In this document: positions 13,321-59,029 of the stretch, piece after piece | How positions within the stretch are numbered: position 1 is the stretch's first letter | Layout of the letters: each line of letters starts with the position of its first letter | Virus record (IMG/VR): IMGVR_UViG_3300033121_001921 | Coordinates: 1 to 64,000 of that record | Origin: a virus | Taxonomy: Duplodnaviria; Caudoviricetes | DNA length: 64,000 nt | Reading direction: 5' to 3' (one strand) | The notes under the pieces: generated by a model | Databases searched by the model: none | Seen by the model: only the letters and a program-made list of their open reading frames with translations | Told to the model about the DNA's origin: nothing | Program-made: the position numbers and the translations under genes

Positions 13321-13419
13321 TATGTTTTATATATCTTTTTTCAAATATAGTTCAAATTTTGAAATCTTCCAATAGAGGGAGAGTTTACATTTTTATATAT
13401 AGATAAACAAATATATGAA

Positions 13420-15231
13420 ATGATATTGGATAAAAAAGCAAAAATTAAAATAACTAGAAAGAACATTGATCACTATTCTAGATTTTTCATTAATTTAAAA
13501 TTAAAAGATATTATTGAAATAGATATTGAGGAACATTTGATGAAATCAAGTAATCTAAAAATAAATGTTCAGTGTGATGTGTGTAGTATAAAGAGAATCA
13601 TAAAATACCAAGCCTATAATAAGAATATTAGCTCTTGTCAGGATCATCCTATATACACATGTGATAAATGTTCCCATATAAAACTAAAATCAACCAATCA
13701 GAAAAAATATGGCACTGATTATTTTTCACAAACGAATCTATTTGAATCAAAATTCAAATCCTCAATGAGGAAAAAATATGGAGTGGAATACGCTCTTCAG
13801 AGCAAAGAATTAAGGGAGAAAGCTAAACAAACAAATTTGAATAAATACGGAGTAGAAAATCCCTTTCAATCTGAAGAGATTAAAGAAAAAATAAAGAATA
13901 CAATTATTGATAAATATGGATATTCTCATATCCAATCTGTTCCGGAAATAAAAGATAAGATAAAAAAGACCAATTTGAGTAGACATGGGGTAGAATACCC
14001 AATGCAATCGAAGGAAATAAGAATGAAATCTGCTAAGACTAATATGTATAAATTTGGAAATTCAATTTTTTCAAAGACAAAAGAGTATATTGATATTGCT
14101 AAAAAAACAAATTTAGAAAAATGGGGACATGAATGGACTCTACAATCTCCTGAAATAAGGAGTCTCATATCTAAAACGAATTTAGAGAAATATGGAGTTG
14201 ATAATCCAATGAAATCTGAAGAAATAAGAAGGGATATGATTATTTCAAATGACCCACAGTATGTAAGATATATCGGTGAAAGTATTTCTCTATTTGATTG
14301 TCAAATGGGACACGAATTTGAAATAGATATAGACCTATATCATAGTAGAAGTGGAAATGGTACTCCGCTATGCACAGTCTGTAATCCAATTGGAGATAGT
14401 CGGTCCATAAAAGAAAACGATCTATTTGAATTCATTAAATCTATATACCAAGGAGAAATTATTCAATCATATAAGGATGGATTGGAAATTGATATCTATC
14501 TGCCTATCCTAAACCTTGGATTCGAATTTAATGGACTTTATTGGCATTCAGAAGAATTTAGACCTAGAAGATATCATATAGACAAAACAAATTATTTCGA
14601 GAAAAAAGGAATTAGAATAATTCACATTTGGGAAGATGATTGGACATATAGAGGTGAGATAATTAAGAGTCAAATTAGAAATTGGATAGGTGATGTTAAA
14701 GAAAGAATCTTTGCAAGAAAGTGCAAAATTAGGGAAGTCAGCTCAGATATTTCTAAAGAATTTCTTGATTTAAATCATGTCCAGGGATCATGTAATTCTA
14801 TTAAGCAATTAGGATTGTACTTTAATGATGAGTTAGTCAGTATAATGACCTTCGATCATTCTGAGGGCAGAAAGAAAATGCCTATAAATGATTGGAATTT
14901 ATCTAGATTCTGCAATAAGTTAAATACAAGTATTATTGGAGGAGCCTCAAAGCTATTCCAATTCTTCATCAGGAACTATTCTCCATTAAGAGTTATTAGC
15001 TACGCAGATAGAAATTGGAGCAATGGAAATTTATATTTCAAATTAGGATTTAGTCATATTTCTAATTCCAAAGAAGACTATAAATATGTTGTTGAAAATA
15101 GAAGAATTCATAAATCAAGATTCAGAAAATCTAAATTGGACACTAACTTGTCCGAATCAGAATACATGAGATTGAATAGTATTCCGAAGATATGGGATTG
15201 TGGGAAGATGAAATTCGAGTTAAAAAATTGA
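13420..15231 (+). CDS. putative free-standing homing endonuclease (KYG repeats + Hef-like domain), paralog of 9836..11650
   Basis: same architecture; C-terminal half closely similar (CNPIGDS.SIKE...GFEFNGLYWHS...WDCGKMKFE). Confidence 0.8.
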   Translation: MILDKKAKIKITRKNIDHYSRFFINLKLKDIIEIDIEEHLMKSSNLKINVQCDVCSIKRIIKYQAYNKNISSCQDHPIYTCDKCSHIKLKSTNQKKYGTDYFSQTNLFESKFKSSMRKKYGVEYALQSKELREKAKQTNLNKYGVENPFQSEEIKEKIKNTIIDKYGYSHIQSVPEIKDKIKKTNLSRHGVEYPMQSKEIRMKSAKTNMYKFGNSIFSKTKEYIDIAKKTNLEKWGHEWTLQSPEIRSLISKTNLEKYGVDNPMKSEEIRRDMIISNDPQYVRYIGESISLFDCQMGHEFEIDIDLYHSRSGNGTPLCTVCNPIGDSRSIKENDLFEFIKSIYQGEIIQSYKDGLEIDIYLPILNLGFEFNGLYWHSEEFRPRRYHIDKTNYFEKKGIRIIHIWEDDWTYRGEIIKSQIRNWIGDVKERIFARKCKIREVSSDISKEFLDLNHVQGSCNSIKQLGLYFNDELVSIMTFDHSEGRKKMPINDWNLSRFCNKLNTSIIGGASKLFQFFIRNYSPLRVISYADRNWSNGNLYFKLGFSHISNSKEDYKYVVENRRIHKSRFRKSKLDTNLSESEYMRLNSIPKIWDCGKMKFELKN

Positions 15232-33247: not shown

Positions 33248-33257
33248 CAAATATATA
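33248..33257. promoter_or_regulatory. overlapping divergent promoter elements
   Basis: CAAATATATA reads as TATATTTG on the minus strand and ATATATA on the plus strand, 4 nt before the ATG at 33262. Confidence 0.5.
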
Positions 33258-33261
33258 GATT

Positions 33262-33627
33262 ATGATTAAGAAGTTTGAGGAATTTGAATGGGTCAGTCCA
33301 GAAGGGCCGCAAAGTATGATTTTAGAATCGGGACATGGCAAAATTTATTCCAAAGAGGAAATAGAAGAATTTTTTCAAGATATTCTTGATGAATGCGATT
33401 CCTCAATTTTTGTAACTGTTAGAAATGATTATGTATCTGTAATAATATTCATTGATCTATATCAATGGAATTCAAATAAAAATTTGTCGAAAATGATATC
33501 AAATGATTTCTGGAGATTAAGAAAATCTACGGAATTAGCATGGTATGATAATCGTGACCAAGAAGTAGATATAAAAAGAGAATATGGCATTCAGAAGTAT
33601 TTCATGGTATCTAGAAACTTAAAATAA
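33262..33627 (+). CDS. MIKKFEEF-family protein
   Basis: 121 aa; EIEEFFQDILDE segment. Confidence 0.75.
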   Translation: MIKKFEEFEWVSPEGPQSMILESGHGKIYSKEEIEEFFQDILDECDSSIFVTVRNDYVSVIIFIDLYQWNSNKNLSKMISNDFWRLRKSTELAWYDNRDQEVDIKREYGIQKYFMVSRNLK

Positions 33628-41151: not shown

Positions 41152-41207
41152 CTACAAATTTAATCATTTTTTCACAAATTACAAAATGCGTAATTTATAT
41201 ATAAATT

Positions 41208-41786
41208 ATGAATCACATTAAAAAATTTGAATCTTGGGATAATGATGCTCCAGTATTCAATTTTGATCAAACATTTCATGTTGTTGGCAGAAATGAAATA
41301 TCTAGCTGGTGGGATTGTCTATCATGTGATAATATATGGGAAAATTTTAATAAAATAGATCCATCAGAATGTCCAAAATGCTCTTCAAAAGAAATTGAAG
41401 AAATAGAATCTGGTGAAGAAGATGACTTACTAGATTTATATAGTCTTAAGAAAGCCTATGAAAATCTGAATCCAGAATCGCACCAAGAAGTTATAAATGA
41501 AGTTAAGTCACTAATTGAATCAACAATTGAAAAGTCTGGAGGTGAATTTTCAACTTTTGTGGAGTCTATGGTAAAGGAACCAGAAAAATTCAAAATTGAA
41601 GGACTTATCAATGATTCCGACATATATGATTTCTATCTAAAATATAGAAATGATATAGATGAGATATTAAATGATGTGAAGTTCTATGATGAGGTTCCAT
41701 CTGAAATAAATGTTTTTGGTCTATACGATTATATAATTACGGGAACGAATAGAGCCGTTCAAGAGGTTGTCAAGATGATCAAGTAA
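41208..41786 (+). CDS. MNHIKKFES-family protein with a zinc ribbon
   Basis: CLSC...CPKC; ATATATA 4 nt upstream. Confidence 0.75.
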   Translation: MNHIKKFESWDNDAPVFNFDQTFHVVGRNEISSWWDCLSCDNIWENFNKIDPSECPKCSSKEIEEIESGEEDDLLDLYSLKKAYENLNPESHQEVINEVKSLIESTIEKSGGEFSTFVESMVKEPEKFKIEGLINDSDIYDFYLKYRNDIDEILNDVKFYDEVPSEINVFGLYDYIITGTNRAVQEVVKMIK

Positions 41787-44968: not shown

Positions 44969-45886
44969 ATGTTAATTAGCGAGTCTGTATTTACTCCAAC
45001 GAACAATAGAAATTATAAAAAATTCAAATCACTAGGATATGAATTTGATATTGGTGATGTGATATTGGTAAGTATCAATCATCTTTCTACAGGATCAAAA
45101 TCTATTGTTGTTGTACAGTGTGATGTTTGTGGGTCTAAAATGGATTTAAAATATTCCATGTATGTAAAGAATACTAAAAAGTATGGCATTTATACATGTA
45201 ATGGTCGATGCTCCAAAATAAAATTTAAAAAAACTTAGAATTTCGGTTCAGAGACTCCGATGCAAAATCCCGATATAAGAAATAAAGTTGGTGAGTATTT
45301 CCTATCTAAATATGGAGTTAGACACCCATCAATGCTTTTAGAATTTGAAAAGAAAAAACAAGACACAAATATAGAAAGATACGGAGTTCCTCACCAAATG
45401 CATATATCAGATAATATCCTAAAAATAAAAAGCTCCAAGTTAGAAAAATACGGGAATGAAAATTATAATAATATCAAAAAGAATAAAGAGACTTGCTTGG
45501 AACGATATGGTGTTAATAATGTAATGAAAGTTGAAGAGATATTTAACAGGCAAAAATCATCTAGCTTTAGTAAAAACGAAATAAATAATTTAATATATCA
45601 AAGTACTTATGAGCTAGACTTCATAAAAAAATGTCTGAGTATGAACATTAGAATAGAAAACGGGCCATCTATTGATTACGCATTTGATGGCAAAGATCAT
45701 AAATATTATTCAGATTTCTACTTGCCAGAATATAATTTAGTGTGTGAGATCAAGTCTAATTATATATACAACATGGAAGTTGATATAAATGAACGTAAAA
45801 AAGCATCTTCGATAAAAAATGGATATAATTTCTTATTTATAATTGATAAGAACTATACTGAATTTGAAAAAATATTGATTAGATAA
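44969..45886 (+). pseudogene. KYG-repeat PD-(D/E)XK (TnsA-like) endonuclease split by an in-frame TAG
   Basis: ORFs 44969..45238 and 45260..45886 are in one frame (KFKKT*NFGSETPMQNP); C-terminal YQSTYELDFI..YYSDFY..EIKS. Confidence 0.7.
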
Positions 45887-55417: not shown

Positions 55418-55570
55418 TCATATTCTTTGTTTTAATAAATTAATTATACTTTTTACATCCCCAGACTCAACCTCATGAAATTGAATATTATTTTCTCTTA
55501 TCAAATTGTAATAAGAATTATCTACTTCTTTTGCTTGTTCTAAATTTTGAACCCTACCATCCGGTCTGTA
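55418..55570 (-). pseudogene. C-terminal remnant of a NadR/AAA_28-like kinase
   Basis: YRPDGRVQNLEQAKEVDNSYYNLIRENNIQFHEV resembles the lid of AAA_28 kinases; no P-loop or start upstream. Confidence 0.5.
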
Positions 55571-55600
55571 GGAGGCGCAAAAACAAATCAAAAAAATATA

Positions 55601-55607
55601 ATATATA
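55601..55607 (+). promoter_or_regulatory. ATATATA box (putative phage late promoter)
   Basis: 4 nt before the ATG; equivalent boxes at 4763, 22100, 33251, 35122, 41197, 42159, 44958, 50068, 54190 and 56016, plus many on the minus strand. Confidence 0.6.
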
Positions 55608-55611
55608 AGTC

Positions 55612-55953
55612 ATGAAATAGATTGATACAAAATTAATTATTATCACAAGGGAAGATATATCCGATGGATATAAAGTTGTTCAATCCGCCCATTCTATTGC
55701 AGATTTTGCTCACCAACATCCTGAAAAATTTAATGATTGGAAAAATACATCCAATTCTATAATCTGCCTCTCTTGTAAGTCAGAAGAACATCTTTTAGAT
55801 CTCCATAAAAAGTGGAGTAAACGGACTCCGTGTTCAATATTTTTTGAACCCGATATAGATCAGTTTACTTCACTTTGTCTTTTTGGTGCCCCTGAAATAA
55901 GAAAATCATTTTCAAATTTACCCCTAGCTCTAAAAAAACAAATAACCCAATGA
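55612..55953 (+). CDS. Pth2-like peptidyl-tRNA hydrolase with an in-frame TAG at codon 3 (not in the ORF track)
   Basis: MK*IDTKLIIITREDISDGYKVVQSAHS...WKNTSNSIICL..EEHLLDL...FEPDIDQFTSLCLFG...LPL; matches the Pth2 layout (IVVRxDL..G...Q..HA; W; L...L; D..T..G; LxL). Confidence 0.7.
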
Positions 55954-56030
55954 ATAGACTCGCCGTAGTAGATGAAGTTAGATTACAAAGAATTCAATAT
56001 CGTTTAAAATATGTTATATATACTTTATGA
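55950..56030 (+). CDS. 26-aa ORF coupled to the Pth2-like gene
   Basis: ATGA overlap on both sides; MNRLAVVDEVRLQRIQYRLKYVIYTL. Confidence 0.3.
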   Translation: MNRLAVVDEVRLQRIQYRLKYVIYTL

Positions 56031-56959
56031 AAAATAACATTGAATTAAAAAATTATAACAAAAGTGGAATCTATAAAATAGAAAACATTGAAAATGGATT
56101 TGTTTATATAGGAAGTGCATACAATTTTTATAACAGATATAGAGTTCATAAATCAAGATTATCCAGAGGAAAACATGATAATTATCATTTACAAAAATCA
56201 TATAATAAATATGGTGTTGAAAAATTTGAATTCAGTATTGTTGAAATAGTAGACAATATTGATAATATCTATGATATAGAAAAATTTTACATAAATAAGT
56301 TCTTTGGTACTAAATGTTATAATATTAACACCGAAACACAACCCCACATTAATCTCATTTCTTGGAATGATTCTAGAGAAAAAGAATTTTCTTTAATTTC
56401 CCCAGATGGAGAATTAAGATTTTTTAAGGGGTATGTAAGAGCCGGAAAAGAATTGGGAATACTACCATCAGGAATAAGACAAGTTGTAATTGGTAAAATA
56501 AAAAGCTATAAGGGATGGAGAACAATAGATAATAAAGACTATGATTATAAAAATTATAGAAAAATAAAAAATAAAGGGGCTAAATTACATGATATTAAAT
56601 TATTATCTCCAAGCGGAGAAATAATTGGCCCAATATTTAATATTGAAGAATTTGCAAGATTAAATAACATACATCCATCGATAATATTTAATATTATCGC
56701 AAAAAGAACAAGATATTCTAATGGATGGTCTCTTTACGAAGGAAGTATCAAGAAACCGATAGAAAAAAATGCAAAATTATATGATATTTGCCTTATTTCA
56801 CCATCAGGTGAAGTATTTGATGGTATAGAAAATCTTGCAAAATTTTGCAGAGAAAACAATGTCCAAATAGCAAGCATAAGAAAGCTTATAAAAGGAACCA
56901 TCAAAAGAAAATCTTATAAAGGATGGAAATTAAAAGAAAATCACCATGTCAAAAATTGA
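56027..56959 (+). CDS. GIY-YIG homing endonuclease with three C-terminal repeats
   Basis: SGIYKIEN..FVYIGSA..R..H; repeated SP(D/S)GE...GW units. Confidence 0.88.
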   Translation: MKNNIELKNYNKSGIYKIENIENGFVYIGSAYNFYNRYRVHKSRLSRGKHDNYHLQKSYNKYGVEKFEFSIVEIVDNIDNIYDIEKFYINKFFGTKCYNINTETQPHINLISWNDSREKEFSLISPDGELRFFKGYVRAGKELGILPSGIRQVVIGKIKSYKGWRTIDNKDYDYKNYRKIKNKGAKLHDIKLLSPSGEIIGPIFNIEEFARLNNIHPSIIFNIIAKRTRYSNGWSLYEGSIKKPIEKNAKLYDICLISPSGEVFDGIENLAKFCRENNVQIASIRKLIKGTIKRKSYKGWKLKENHHVKN

Positions 56960-57452
56960 ATTACGAATAATTAAATTCCTGAATAGAATTCTTAAGAAAT
57001 TCAACAAGCAAATATCCATTAATGGAAAATACTACCTTATAGAAGAGGGAAGAATTCATTACGAATGTGTGTATTGTCAAAGGGATCAAATAGCTCTTCC
57101 GGATTTTAAGTATAAAAAATATTCATACGAGTTGCAAAAACTACCACAGATTACATCACAAGATATAACTATTTCAGATGATGAATTATACGAAATTTAT
57201 GGATGGGCCATAGAAACAAGATCCACAATAAGTGTAGATGAAGATGAAAATCCCCAATGGAGAAATGCCAAACCACATAAGATATACTCGTCTAGAGAAA
57301 CGGCGTTGGATTCAATAATCCAACTAAAATCAACCGAAGACCCATGGACCAAAAGATACTACTCATATGAATATCGAGTTAAACCCATCTATCACATTTC
57401 ATCAACAGAAGGAATGCGAAACGTTCTAATCAATAAAATCTTAAACAAATAA
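56946..57452 (+). CDS. hypothetical protein
   Basis: 168 aa; ends MRNVLINKILNK. Confidence 0.65.
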   Translation: MSKIELRIIKFLNRILKKFNKQISINGKYYLIEEGRIHYECVYCQRDQIALPDFKYKKYSYELQKLPQITSQDITISDDELYEIYGWAIETRSTISVDEDENPQWRNAKPHKIYSSRETALDSIIQLKSTEDPWTKRYYSYEYRVKPIYHISSTEGMRNVLINKILNK

Positions 57453-57462
57453 ACCAAAAACA

Positions 57463-57870
57463 ATGAAAACAAAAGAACAAAACAAGCAAGAAGTCGTTAA
57501 TTATCTAACCAAGTGCTCTCAACACATTTTCGTTAAGGGATGGGAAGAATGGAGGCAAATTTTTCTTAAGCAAAAAGAAATAACAGAATTTGTTAAAATA
57601 CTTGTTAAAGAAGATGGATTTGAAATTTACTCATTTGGAAAAATTAGAAAACTCACTAACAAAGACATTGATGACTTGGTTGAGAATTTCAAATCAAATG
57701 CAAAAAATCAAATCAAAATGACAACATTTGTTAATCAATATGTAAACGGCCCAAGGCTTTGTGCAGTCAAAAGCAATAGATACGTCAAAGAGCAGGTAGA
57801 TAAAATTCTTAATCAAAGAGAGGATCCGTCCAAAAAAGAATCTACTATATCTAAAATTTTCAAATTCTAA
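57463..57870 (+). CDS. hypothetical protein
   Basis: 135 aa. Confidence 0.65.
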   Translation: MKTKEQNKQEVVNYLTKCSQHIFVKGWEEWRQIFLKQKEITEFVKILVKEDGFEIYSFGKIRKLTNKDIDDLVENFKSNAKNQIKMTTFVNQYVNGPRLCAVKSNRYVKEQVDKILNQREDPSKKESTISKIFKF

Positions 57871-57946: not shown

Positions 57947-59029
57947 ATGATAGTATCAAAATCTGCAGAAGTCACAATAAATCCATCAAATTATAAGCAT
58001 TACGCTAGATTTTATCCAAGCATTAATTTTAGGGATAAAGTCTTTGTTAATATTTCCGAATTAACCAAATCATCATCATGTATTATCAAAGCTTCTTGTG
58101 ACTTCTGTAAATTTGAAAAAGATATAACATATAAAGCATATTGCGCCCAAACAAAATCCATAGATTATTATTCTTGTTCCAAGAAAGATTGCGTTAGTAA
58201 GAAAATTAAACTAGTATCTCAACTAAGATATGGTGTAGATAATCCATCTAAATCAGAAAATATTAAGGAAAAAATAAGAAATGTAATCAAAGAAAGATAT
58301 AGAGTTGATAATGTTATGCATCTTGAATCATTCAAAGAAAAACAGAAAAAATCTATACGTAATAGATACGGGGTTGATAATCCATTTCAGTCTGAAGAAA
58401 TTAAAGATAGAATAAAAGCAAAAAATTTAGAAAAATATGGAAATGAAATATCATCAAAATCCCCAATAATTAAAGAAAGAGTAATTATAAACAATAACAA
58501 AAAATATGGAGTTAATTATCCGCAACAACTGGAAGAAATTAAAGATAAAATAAAATCCACCAATTTAGAACGATATGGATATGAATCGGCATCATCCTCT
58601 ATTGAGATAAGGAATAAAATAAAATCAACCAATTTAGAACGATATGGTGTCCCCAATTACTCCCAATCAAACGAATTTTGGCATAAATTTAAAAGCTCAA
58701 TTGCTTGGAAAAAACACAATGGGCAAAATTATCAAACCTCATATGAGCTAGATTTTTTAATACATTGTGAATCAAAAAATATTACATTATCATCGAATAT
58801 ACCAAGGATAAAATATAATCTAAATGAAGAAGATCATTATTACTTCCCCGATTTTTACATAGAATCCATAAATTTATTAATAGAGATAAAATCTTACTAT
58901 TGGTGGAAAAAGCTGGAAGATAAAAACATTCAAAAAATTGAATCATCCAAACTACTAGGATATAATCACATATTGATAATGGAAAAAGATTATTCTGAAT
59001 TTGACAAACTTATACAATCGATTTTATAA
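57947..59029 (+). CDS. KYG-repeat PD-(D/E)XK (TnsA-like) putative homing endonuclease
   Basis: CDFC zinc motif, NLERYG repeats, YQTSYELDF..YFPDFY..EIKS. Confidence 0.8.
   Translation: MIVSKSAEVTINPSNYKHYARFYPSINFRDKVFVNISELTKSSSCIIKASCDFCKFEKDITYKAYCAQTKSIDYYSCSKKDCVSKKIKLVSQLRYGVDNPSKSENIKEKIRNVIKERYRVDNVMHLESFKEKQKKSIRNRYGVDNPFQSEEIKDRIKAKNLEKYGNEISSKSPIIKERVIINNNKKYGVNYPQQLEEIKDKIKSTNLERYGYESASSSIEIRNKIKSTNLERYGVPNYSQSNEFWHKFKSSIAWKKHNGQNYQTSYELDFLIHCESKNITLSSNIPRIKYNLNEEDHYYFPDFYIESINLLIEIKSYYWWKKLEDKNIQKIESSKLLGYNHILIMEKDYSEFDKLIQSIL

Follow-up and report, generated by a model that had tools for sequence, protein, structure and literature searches.

In recoded phages that read TAG as glutamine ('code 15'; Lak and crAss-like phages), a phage UAG-reading tRNA has been proposed to license genes containing in-frame UAG codons and to provide temporal control in a host that uses the standard code (10.1101/2021.08.26.457843). 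Suppressor-tRNA-dependent expression is already an established idea for such phages. Many large phages of standard code also carry amber-suppressor tRNAs; in the study of XacN1, only the sequence downstream of amber stops was searched, and no targets for the CUA-anticodon tRNAs were found (PMC5852040). Here we describe an apparent target in the first 64 kb (64,000 nucleotides, hereafter the window) of the IMG/VR record IMGVR_UViG_3300033121_001921, a Caudoviricetes contig of 80.5 kb with 31% G+C that represents about 28% of the estimated genome. The gene concerned is predicted to encode a protein resembling peptidyl-tRNA hydrolase 2 (Pth2) and lies directly behind an in-frame ATG AAA TAG; the apparent target is a fixed UAG at the start of this Pth2-like gene and of a gene for an HD-like protein, both located beside the tRNA in related phages. 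From comparison of these loci we consider it likely that a phage amber-suppressor tRNA gates the Pth2-like gene, and that the UAG, ancestral and maintained by selection, belongs to a module made up of tRNA-CUA, Pth2-like and HD genes.

The Pth2-like gene and its amber codon

The features of the window that are discussed here are listed in Table 1. The motif ATATATAA is followed by GTC, the ATG at 55612-55614, a single AAA codon and the TAG, after which 110 sense codons, the first of them ATT, run in frame from 55621 to 55950 and are closed by a TGA at 55951-55953. Neither ATG, GTG nor TTG occurs anywhere within this 110-codon frame.

Table 1. Features of the putatively amber-gated locus and of other loci discussed in the text (window coordinates)
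Feature	Position	Strand	Basis
Start-associated motif ATATATAA	55601..55608	+	3 nt 5' of ATG; motif enrichment in the window
ATG and one sense codon (AAA, Lys)	55612..55617	+	In-frame ATG 0-8 codons 5' of TAG in 37/38 distinct homologues
In-frame amber codon (TAG) at codon 3, conserved	55618..55620	+	TAG in 38/38 distinct homologues, TAA/TGA never
Pth2-like open reading frame, 110 codons and TGA	55621..55953	+	Pfam PTH2, phrog_1866, AF2, Foldseek, dN/dS
Suppressor-tRNA stub: T-arm end, 3' acceptor strand, discriminator; TGTAGGAGGCGCA at 55567-55579	55566..55579	+	L006 alignment
GIY-YIG endonuclease gene in HD-partner slot	56027..56959	+	Pfam GIY-YIG 3.8e-10
In-frame TAG of DUF7487 gene (gene 44969-45886, Pfam DUF7487)	45236..45238	+	Paralogue alignment

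The window contains 20 copies of the arrangement ATATATAR-N3-6-ATG where 2.2 would be expected, a number reached in none of 100 shuffles, and the majority of these copies stand at predicted gene starts. Examples of ATATATAR placed 3-6 nt 5' of an ATG are found at 580-593, 33251-33264, 41197-41210 and 55601-55614. Because the start-associated motif of this genome also precedes ATG 55612, that codon is a credible start. We can only surmise that ATATATAR might act as a late-type -10 element, which would give mRNAs almost without a leader.

An initial annotation, made from the sequence of the window alone, had proposed a peptidyl-tRNA hydrolase-like gene behind ATG AAA TAG, and the position of these codons behind the usual start motif, the 110 open codons that follow in frame and the Pth2 fold of the product (see below) were confirmed. 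The same annotation had pointed to a similar ATG AAA TGA overlapping the start of the gene at 13420, whilst allowing that this may be chance; the codons are present at 13415-13423, out of frame with ATG 13420, and are a chance occurrence as read here. A small amber-gated leader peptide was looked for in the window and none was found.

The predicted product matches the Pfam family PTH2 (PF01981) over residues 4-68, scoring 28 bits where the cut-off is 23, and phrog_1866 at 1.6e-14, whilst a profile of 31 homologues matches Pth2 chains at 3e-8. An AlphaFold2 (AF2) model of the product, built on 31 homologues, had a predicted local distance difference test (pLDDT) score of 94.5. The top Foldseek matches of this model were all Pth2/Bit1 structures, with expectation values (E) of 1e-7 to 2e-4 and template modelling (TM) scores of 0.66-0.74, and its significant structural neighbours were only archaeal and human Pth2 (2zv3, 1wn2, 1q7s, 3erj and 1xty; TM 0.70-0.74). 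In the Pth2 of S. solfataricus the catalytic residues are the Lys of a GK motif and the Asp of a DAG motif. An invariant Asp78 of the phage family (in EPD) is aligned with the Asp of the DAG motif, and Gln21 and His24 are kept as in Pth2 (Q..H). The enzyme would presumably act on (peptidyl-)tRNA.

Conservation of the amber codon and selection on the frame behind it

Homologues of the Pth2-like protein were collected by tblastn and two IMG/VR scans, which gave 52 loci encoding 38 distinct proteins of 35-84% identity, including those of the cultured Tenacibaculum phage pT24 and of phages of 460-735 kb (LR745206, LR756500-504). Megablast with this region returned no match in the phage collection. 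The stop at the gated position was TAG in all 38 distinct homologues, and TAA or TGA were never found there. In 37 of the 38 the homologous frame was preceded by ATG, 0-8 sense codons and the TAG, which stood most commonly at codon 3 (range codons 2-10), and the codons between ATG and TAG varied (Lys, Asn, Thr, Ser, Leu). The leader of pT24 reads ATG AAA TAG ATA, and the corresponding coding sequence (CDS) BPT24_235 has been annotated 42 codons short, without the Pth2 N-terminus (LC168164.1).

The sole homologue in which the ATG is offset by one base from the frame of the TAG, L048 (about 2465-2490), has retained the TAG itself and sits in an array of 13 tRNAs with no CUA tRNA nearby; the displaced ATG could reflect a genuine frameshift, a misassembly or the use of TTG as start. 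Outside the gated position the open reading frames (ORFs) of the homologues are without TAG, with the exception of one internal TAG in LR756501 (L009, position 1594). This second in-frame TAG lies inside the conserved Pth2-like domain and suggests wider TAG read-through in this 735-kb phage.

The ratio of nonsynonymous to synonymous substitution rates (dN/dS) for the Pth2-like ORF was 0.11, at a dS of 0.89, between the window and its closest relative, L006 (84% identity); this is an average over their whole divergence, in which present silence and reliance on a distant tRNA are not separated. Other close homologue pairs gave values of 0.08-0.19, and by these estimates the ORF behind the TAG is under purifying selection. 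The initial annotation had taken a stop conserved at codon 3, with purifying selection downstream, to be decisive for its proposal, and a sense codon in close homologues or a dN/dS near 1 to speak against it. The former pattern is the one found here, and neither of the latter was seen.

Linked CUA-anticodon tRNAs and an HD-domain partner gene

In 23 of the 38 distinct loci a CUA-anticodon tRNA, often the sole tRNA there, was located within 2.5 kb of the gene and in the same orientation. This count takes in odd-shaped CUA tRNAs of 81-82 nt with an enlarged D-arm, which were missed by ARAGORN and were scored at 35-41 bits by our own tRNA-CUA covariance model, for which 25 linked CUA tRNAs were used; the one copy scanned with the Rfam tRNA model, that of L006, scored below the cut-off. 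Acceptor stems and discriminator bases differ among the suppressor tRNAs. In three more genomes the CUA tRNA is found 2-3.4 kb from the gene: LR756501 carries two CUA tRNAs 2 kb downstream of it, the complete 373-kb genome G002 an odd-shaped CUA tRNA 3.4 kb upstream, and pT24 a CUA tRNA at a distance of 2.5 kb. The tRNAs of pT24 lie 1.6-2.6 kb upstream of the gated gene and comprise, according to ARAGORN, one CUA and two Ile-UAU tRNAs, a fourth Rfam tRNA match being a tRNA-Pro in the record, which itself labels the CUA tRNA as tRNA-Sup. A CUA tRNA is also encoded 300 nt downstream of the mycobacteriophage C1-cluster homologue, and right behind the gene in distant family members that have an ordinary ATG start (L056-L064).

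The odd-shaped CUA tRNAs were located at L006 2870-2951, L018 2257-2338, L020 1456-1536, L021 120-201, L025 2137-2218, L007 1784-1864 and G002 about 116.2 kb. Their D-arm has a stem of 4-6 bp, the sequences of which differ yet are complementary, together with extra linker bases. In pT24 (L110, LC168164.1; 26521-27478 and 29087-30037), both the UAG and the ATA of ATG AAA TAG ATA would be read by phage tRNAs. Several pieces resembling tRNA, with a T-arm and 3' acceptor strand in common and ending in ...CCTGACTAC, recur upstream of the Pth2-like gene in L013 (929-2024), L020 (1559-1955) and L028 (303-2179). The homologue of Lak-B7 (L010) has an ordinary ATG start and no early TAG, and a tRNA with a UUA anticodon, which reads UAA, is found about 500 nt upstream of it (847-919).

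All loci were scanned for other frames of the form ATG, short leader and TAG. One recurrent family of further gated frames was recovered, encoding an HD-like protein of ~190 residues with the H..HD..H..D motifs of HD phosphohydrolases and Pfam HD scores of 14-17 bits, below the cut-off. In at least 15 loci this gene comes immediately after the Pth2-like gene, and its start always consists of ATG, 0-6 codons, TAG and an Ile codon. In pT24 and L036 the HD and Pth2-like domains are joined in one frame of 307-314 residues with a single early TAG, and phrog_14850 represents this fused Pth2-HD form. The model of the HD partner had a pLDDT of 94.6 and gave weak fold matches, the first being 'tRNA processing enzyme' entries (3wfo-3wfs; E 0.03, TM 0.53) and the next HD phosphohydrolases. 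It is difficult to account for two different tRNA-related enzymes with this start signature next to a UAG-reading tRNA other than by gating through that tRNA.

The proposed module would comprise the amber-suppressor tRNA (CUA), the Pth2-like gene and, usually, an HD phosphohydrolase gene with the same early UAG. Translation would start at ATG 55612 and meet the UAG at codon 3, where the suppressor tRNA would decode it in competition with release factor 1 (RF1) to yield the full-length protein, whilst only Met-Lys would be made if the UAG were not decoded. The Pth2-like enzyme would probably be made only when the UAG is overridden, and its amount would track the activity of the suppressor tRNA. 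The initial annotation had offered two routes to the enzyme, amber read-through or re-initiation at the adjacent AUU; the linkage of CUA tRNAs to the gene favours read-through by a suppressor tRNA, and the second route is not retained (see below). Amber suppression in E. coli is favoured by a 3' context of RUN (R, purine; N, any base). The codon after the TAG begins with a purine in all 38 homologues and is of the RUN type in nearly all.

An eroded module in the window

The three-part module of linked tRNA-CUA, TAG-gated Pth2-like gene and TAG-gated HD gene is incomplete in the window, where the Pth2-like gene and its TAG are present. In L006, an 82-nt CUA tRNA (scored at 40.9 bits by our own model R1) ends 35 nt 5' of the ATG, and the Pth2-like gene is succeeded by an HD gene. 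The window is homologous to L006 at the DNA level from 55566 onwards, a position within the 3' end of the L006 tRNA, of which only the last 13-14 nt are left in the window (Table 1); the sequence upstream is unrelated to that of L006 and leads to a divergently transcribed ClpP-like gene. The possibility that a stub at 55520-55583 still folds as a tRNA was considered and rejected, there being too little sequence and no T-loop.

On the other side of the Pth2-like gene, the HD gene of L006 (3326-3913) lies between flanks that match window positions 55566-55946 and 56940-57737. No homologue of the HD partner was identified in the contig, and its slot is occupied by the GIY-YIG gene. Judged by this alignment, the window holds an eroded module, from which the linked tRNA and the HD partner have been lost and in which a GIY-YIG gene stands in the HD slot. 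Either the gene now relies on a suppressor tRNA encoded in the ~70% of the genome outside the contig, or it has fallen silent and is being lost.

Evidence against tRNA gating, and alternative explanations

Taken in this genome alone, the layout of the Pth2-like gene is not beyond chance, as an ATG with 0-4 codons, a stop and at least 60 open codons was found seven times with TAG, four times with TAA and seven times with TGA; the ATG-AAA-TAG layout gains its significance because it is kept in relatives. Several points weigh against gating by a suppressor tRNA. No tRNA was detected in the window or in the 80.5-kb contig by ARAGORN, by the Rfam tRNA model at E up to 10 or by our own tRNA-CUA model, and with the tRNA-CUA reduced to a stub the gate may have no key in this phage. 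The search for a suppressor tRNA that the initial annotation had suggested was successful in relatives, in which CUA tRNAs are linked to the gene, and yielded only the stub in this contig. No CUA tRNA was found in LR745206, LR756502 and LR756504 by ARAGORN on tRNA clusters or by one strict pattern, a search that was not exhaustive. The expression and charging of the CUA tRNAs, and their decoding of UAG, are all inferred. Furthermore, TAG ends 10 of 84 long ORFs here and five of 71 CDS in pT24; since an efficient suppressor would extend these TAG-terminated proteins, suppression is presumably partial or timed. In the homologue of mycobacteriophage Grungle (C1-cluster), which reads ATG TAG GTG with GAAGG 7 nt 5' of the GTG, translation may just as plausibly begin at the GTG in the ordinary way. 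Lastly, the Lys of the GK motif of Pth2 is replaced by a conserved Tyr, in a PGY motif, in the phage Pth2-like family, and the substrate of the predicted enzyme may for this reason differ from that of Pth2.

An autoregulatory device that senses the stop itself appears improbable. In such a device the two-codon minigene closed by the UAG would respond to RF1 activity or peptidyl-tRNA drop-off, and near-cognate read-through would occur when termination at UAG is slow, in the manner of prfB. This corresponds to the feedback proposed in the initial annotation, by which the mRNA would both generate and sense the substrate of the enzyme. Short peptidyl-tRNAs drop off most easily at early codons, as known from work on the lambda bar minigene, and the UAG is located within the first 2-10 codons; UAG is moreover read by RF1 alone, which would explain the exclusive use of TAG, and this contig lacks a tRNA-CUA. 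The CUA tRNAs beside the gene in most relatives and the occurrence of the same signature on an unrelated HD-domain gene are nevertheless left unexplained by it, and no stimulatory element is evident.

Blanket reassignment of TAG, similar to code 15 and with the position of the TAG incidental, is regarded as quite improbable, even though related huge phages and the Lak phages are known for recoding (10.1101/2021.08.26.457843) and two further TAGs could be taken in its favour, namely the internal TAG of the LR756501 copy and one in a DUF7487 gene of the window. When read through with X, the latter gene encodes 305 amino acids and aligns end-to-end with a paralogue at 57947-59029 (E 5e-51), the TAG standing opposite a Gln. 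Both a functional suppressor in this phage and a recent nonsense mutation in a gene of mobile-element type would fit this TAG; no orthologue of the gene was found in the L006 contig. Against reassignment, only two of about 85 genes in the 80.5 kb need TAG read-through, and the contig, in which the long ORFs end in TAA (42), TGA (32) or TAG (10; n=84), is densely coding under the standard code; so is pT24, which has a dense standard-code annotation and in a 50-kb stretch of which TAA ends 64 of 71 CDS. The TAG-ended ORFs extend for 1-16 codons past the TAG, plus one extension of 71 codons, and these extensions are apparently non-coding. The code of this contig looks standard. A sense codon would also be expected to drift to synonyms at a dS of at least 0.9, but the TAG is fixed in 38/38 homologues whilst its neighbours vary, and the homologous ORFs are, apart from the one in LR756501, otherwise free of TAG.

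A whole-window recoding test, in which ORF coverage rose no more with TAG taken as a sense codon than with TGA or TAA so taken, was set aside as uninformative on its own. Past the window end (G000 65660-66722), a C-methyltransferase-like ORF appears to be split over two frames, with ATG AAG AAA TAG at 66045 just before its second part; a frameshift, and not gating, probably accounts for this.

Re-initiation, that is, termination at the UAG after Met-Lys and restart at the adjacent AUU as a weak start of the infC type, is very improbable. ATT is the codon after the TAG in the window and in 24 of the 38 homologues, and Grungle has a GTG in this position with a well-spaced GAAGG. The remaining homologues carry ATA (4), GTA (5), GTT (2), AAC (1) or GCT (1), which are unusable as starts, and no usable AUU or near-cognate codon is conserved after the TAG in relatives as it would be with an infC-type start; a change from ATT to ATA leaves the Ile unaltered, as one would expect for a codon read in elongation. 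Because the alternatives are mostly unusable starts and ATT and ATA are synonymous, the codon after the TAG is taken to be read in elongation. Any stop would serve for re-initiation, yet only TAG is found, in genomes where TAA dominates as terminator, and the restart at AUU that the initial annotation had considered is not upheld.

A recent nonsense mutation, pseudogene or assembly error, which that annotation had allowed for and to which other broken-looking genes (the methyltransferase-like ORF in two parts at 65.6-66.7 kb, and the DUF7487 TAG) and the eroded module around the Pth2-like gene would lend some colour, is hardly credible as the source of the TAG and is refuted as its origin, because the same TAG is kept in 38/38 homologues and the ORF is intact and under purifying selection (dN/dS 0.11), whilst present-day silence of the window copy is possible.

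Implications and comparison with known systems

The lock-and-key layout was found in a cultured phage, pT24, and the idea is therefore directly testable. Standard gene callers miss or truncate amber-gated genes, as in the case of BPT24_235. The window itself constitutes a natural 'lock without its key', in that the gene and its TAG persist after loss of the linked tRNA and partner gene. A further and rather unlikely step, which we put forward tentatively, is that tRNA-CUA, Pth2-like and HD genes form a self-contained translational circuit, in which the early UAG would tie the dose of two tRNA-end-processing enzymes to a charged, ribosome-competent sentinel tRNA. The repair or recycling of tRNAs damaged by host defences that target tRNA, or clean-up once a stop has been read through, are examples of the roles that such a circuit might have, and if real it would give the suppressor tRNAs of standard-code phage genomes their first defined target and purpose. 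Literature searches for a link between Pth, amber codons and suppressor tRNAs returned no account of such a module, and the word 'hydrolase' has no occurrences in the preprint on recoded phages (10.1101/2021.08.26.457843).

Of the known systems, the code-15 phages are similar in that a phage-borne UAG-reading tRNA is proposed to license genes with in-frame UAG codons. They differ in having scattered TAGs in many late (structural and lysis) genes and in having shed TAG as a terminator, whereas the genomes with the module described here keep TAG as a stop and have a single fixed TAG at the start of one or two tRNA-related genes beside the tRNA. The prfB gene, which encodes release factor 2 (RF2), likewise has an early in-frame stop, there UGA, in a gene for a translation factor, the output of which depends on how the stop is read; in prfB a +1 frameshift is involved and the gene's own product reads the stop, whereas here there is no frameshift and the stop would be read by a tRNA gene product encoded in cis.

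Minigenes of the lambda bar type share with this locus an AUG-X-stop of two or three codons, a type that promotes peptidyl-tRNA drop-off and that here heads a Pth-like gene. The bar minigenes are free-standing and their effect is not known to depend on the identity of the stop, whilst the stop here is exclusively UAG, in frame with the gene and linked to tRNA-CUA. Finally, the archaeal and eukaryotic Pth2 enzymes (PF01981; 2zv3, 1wn2, 1q7s and 1xty) have the same fold as that predicted for the phage protein (TM 0.70-0.74), with the Q..H and Asp positions kept, from which the phage protein differs in its 20-25% identity, in having a Tyr in place of the GK Lys, in being phage-borne and in its fusion to an HD domain in some phages.
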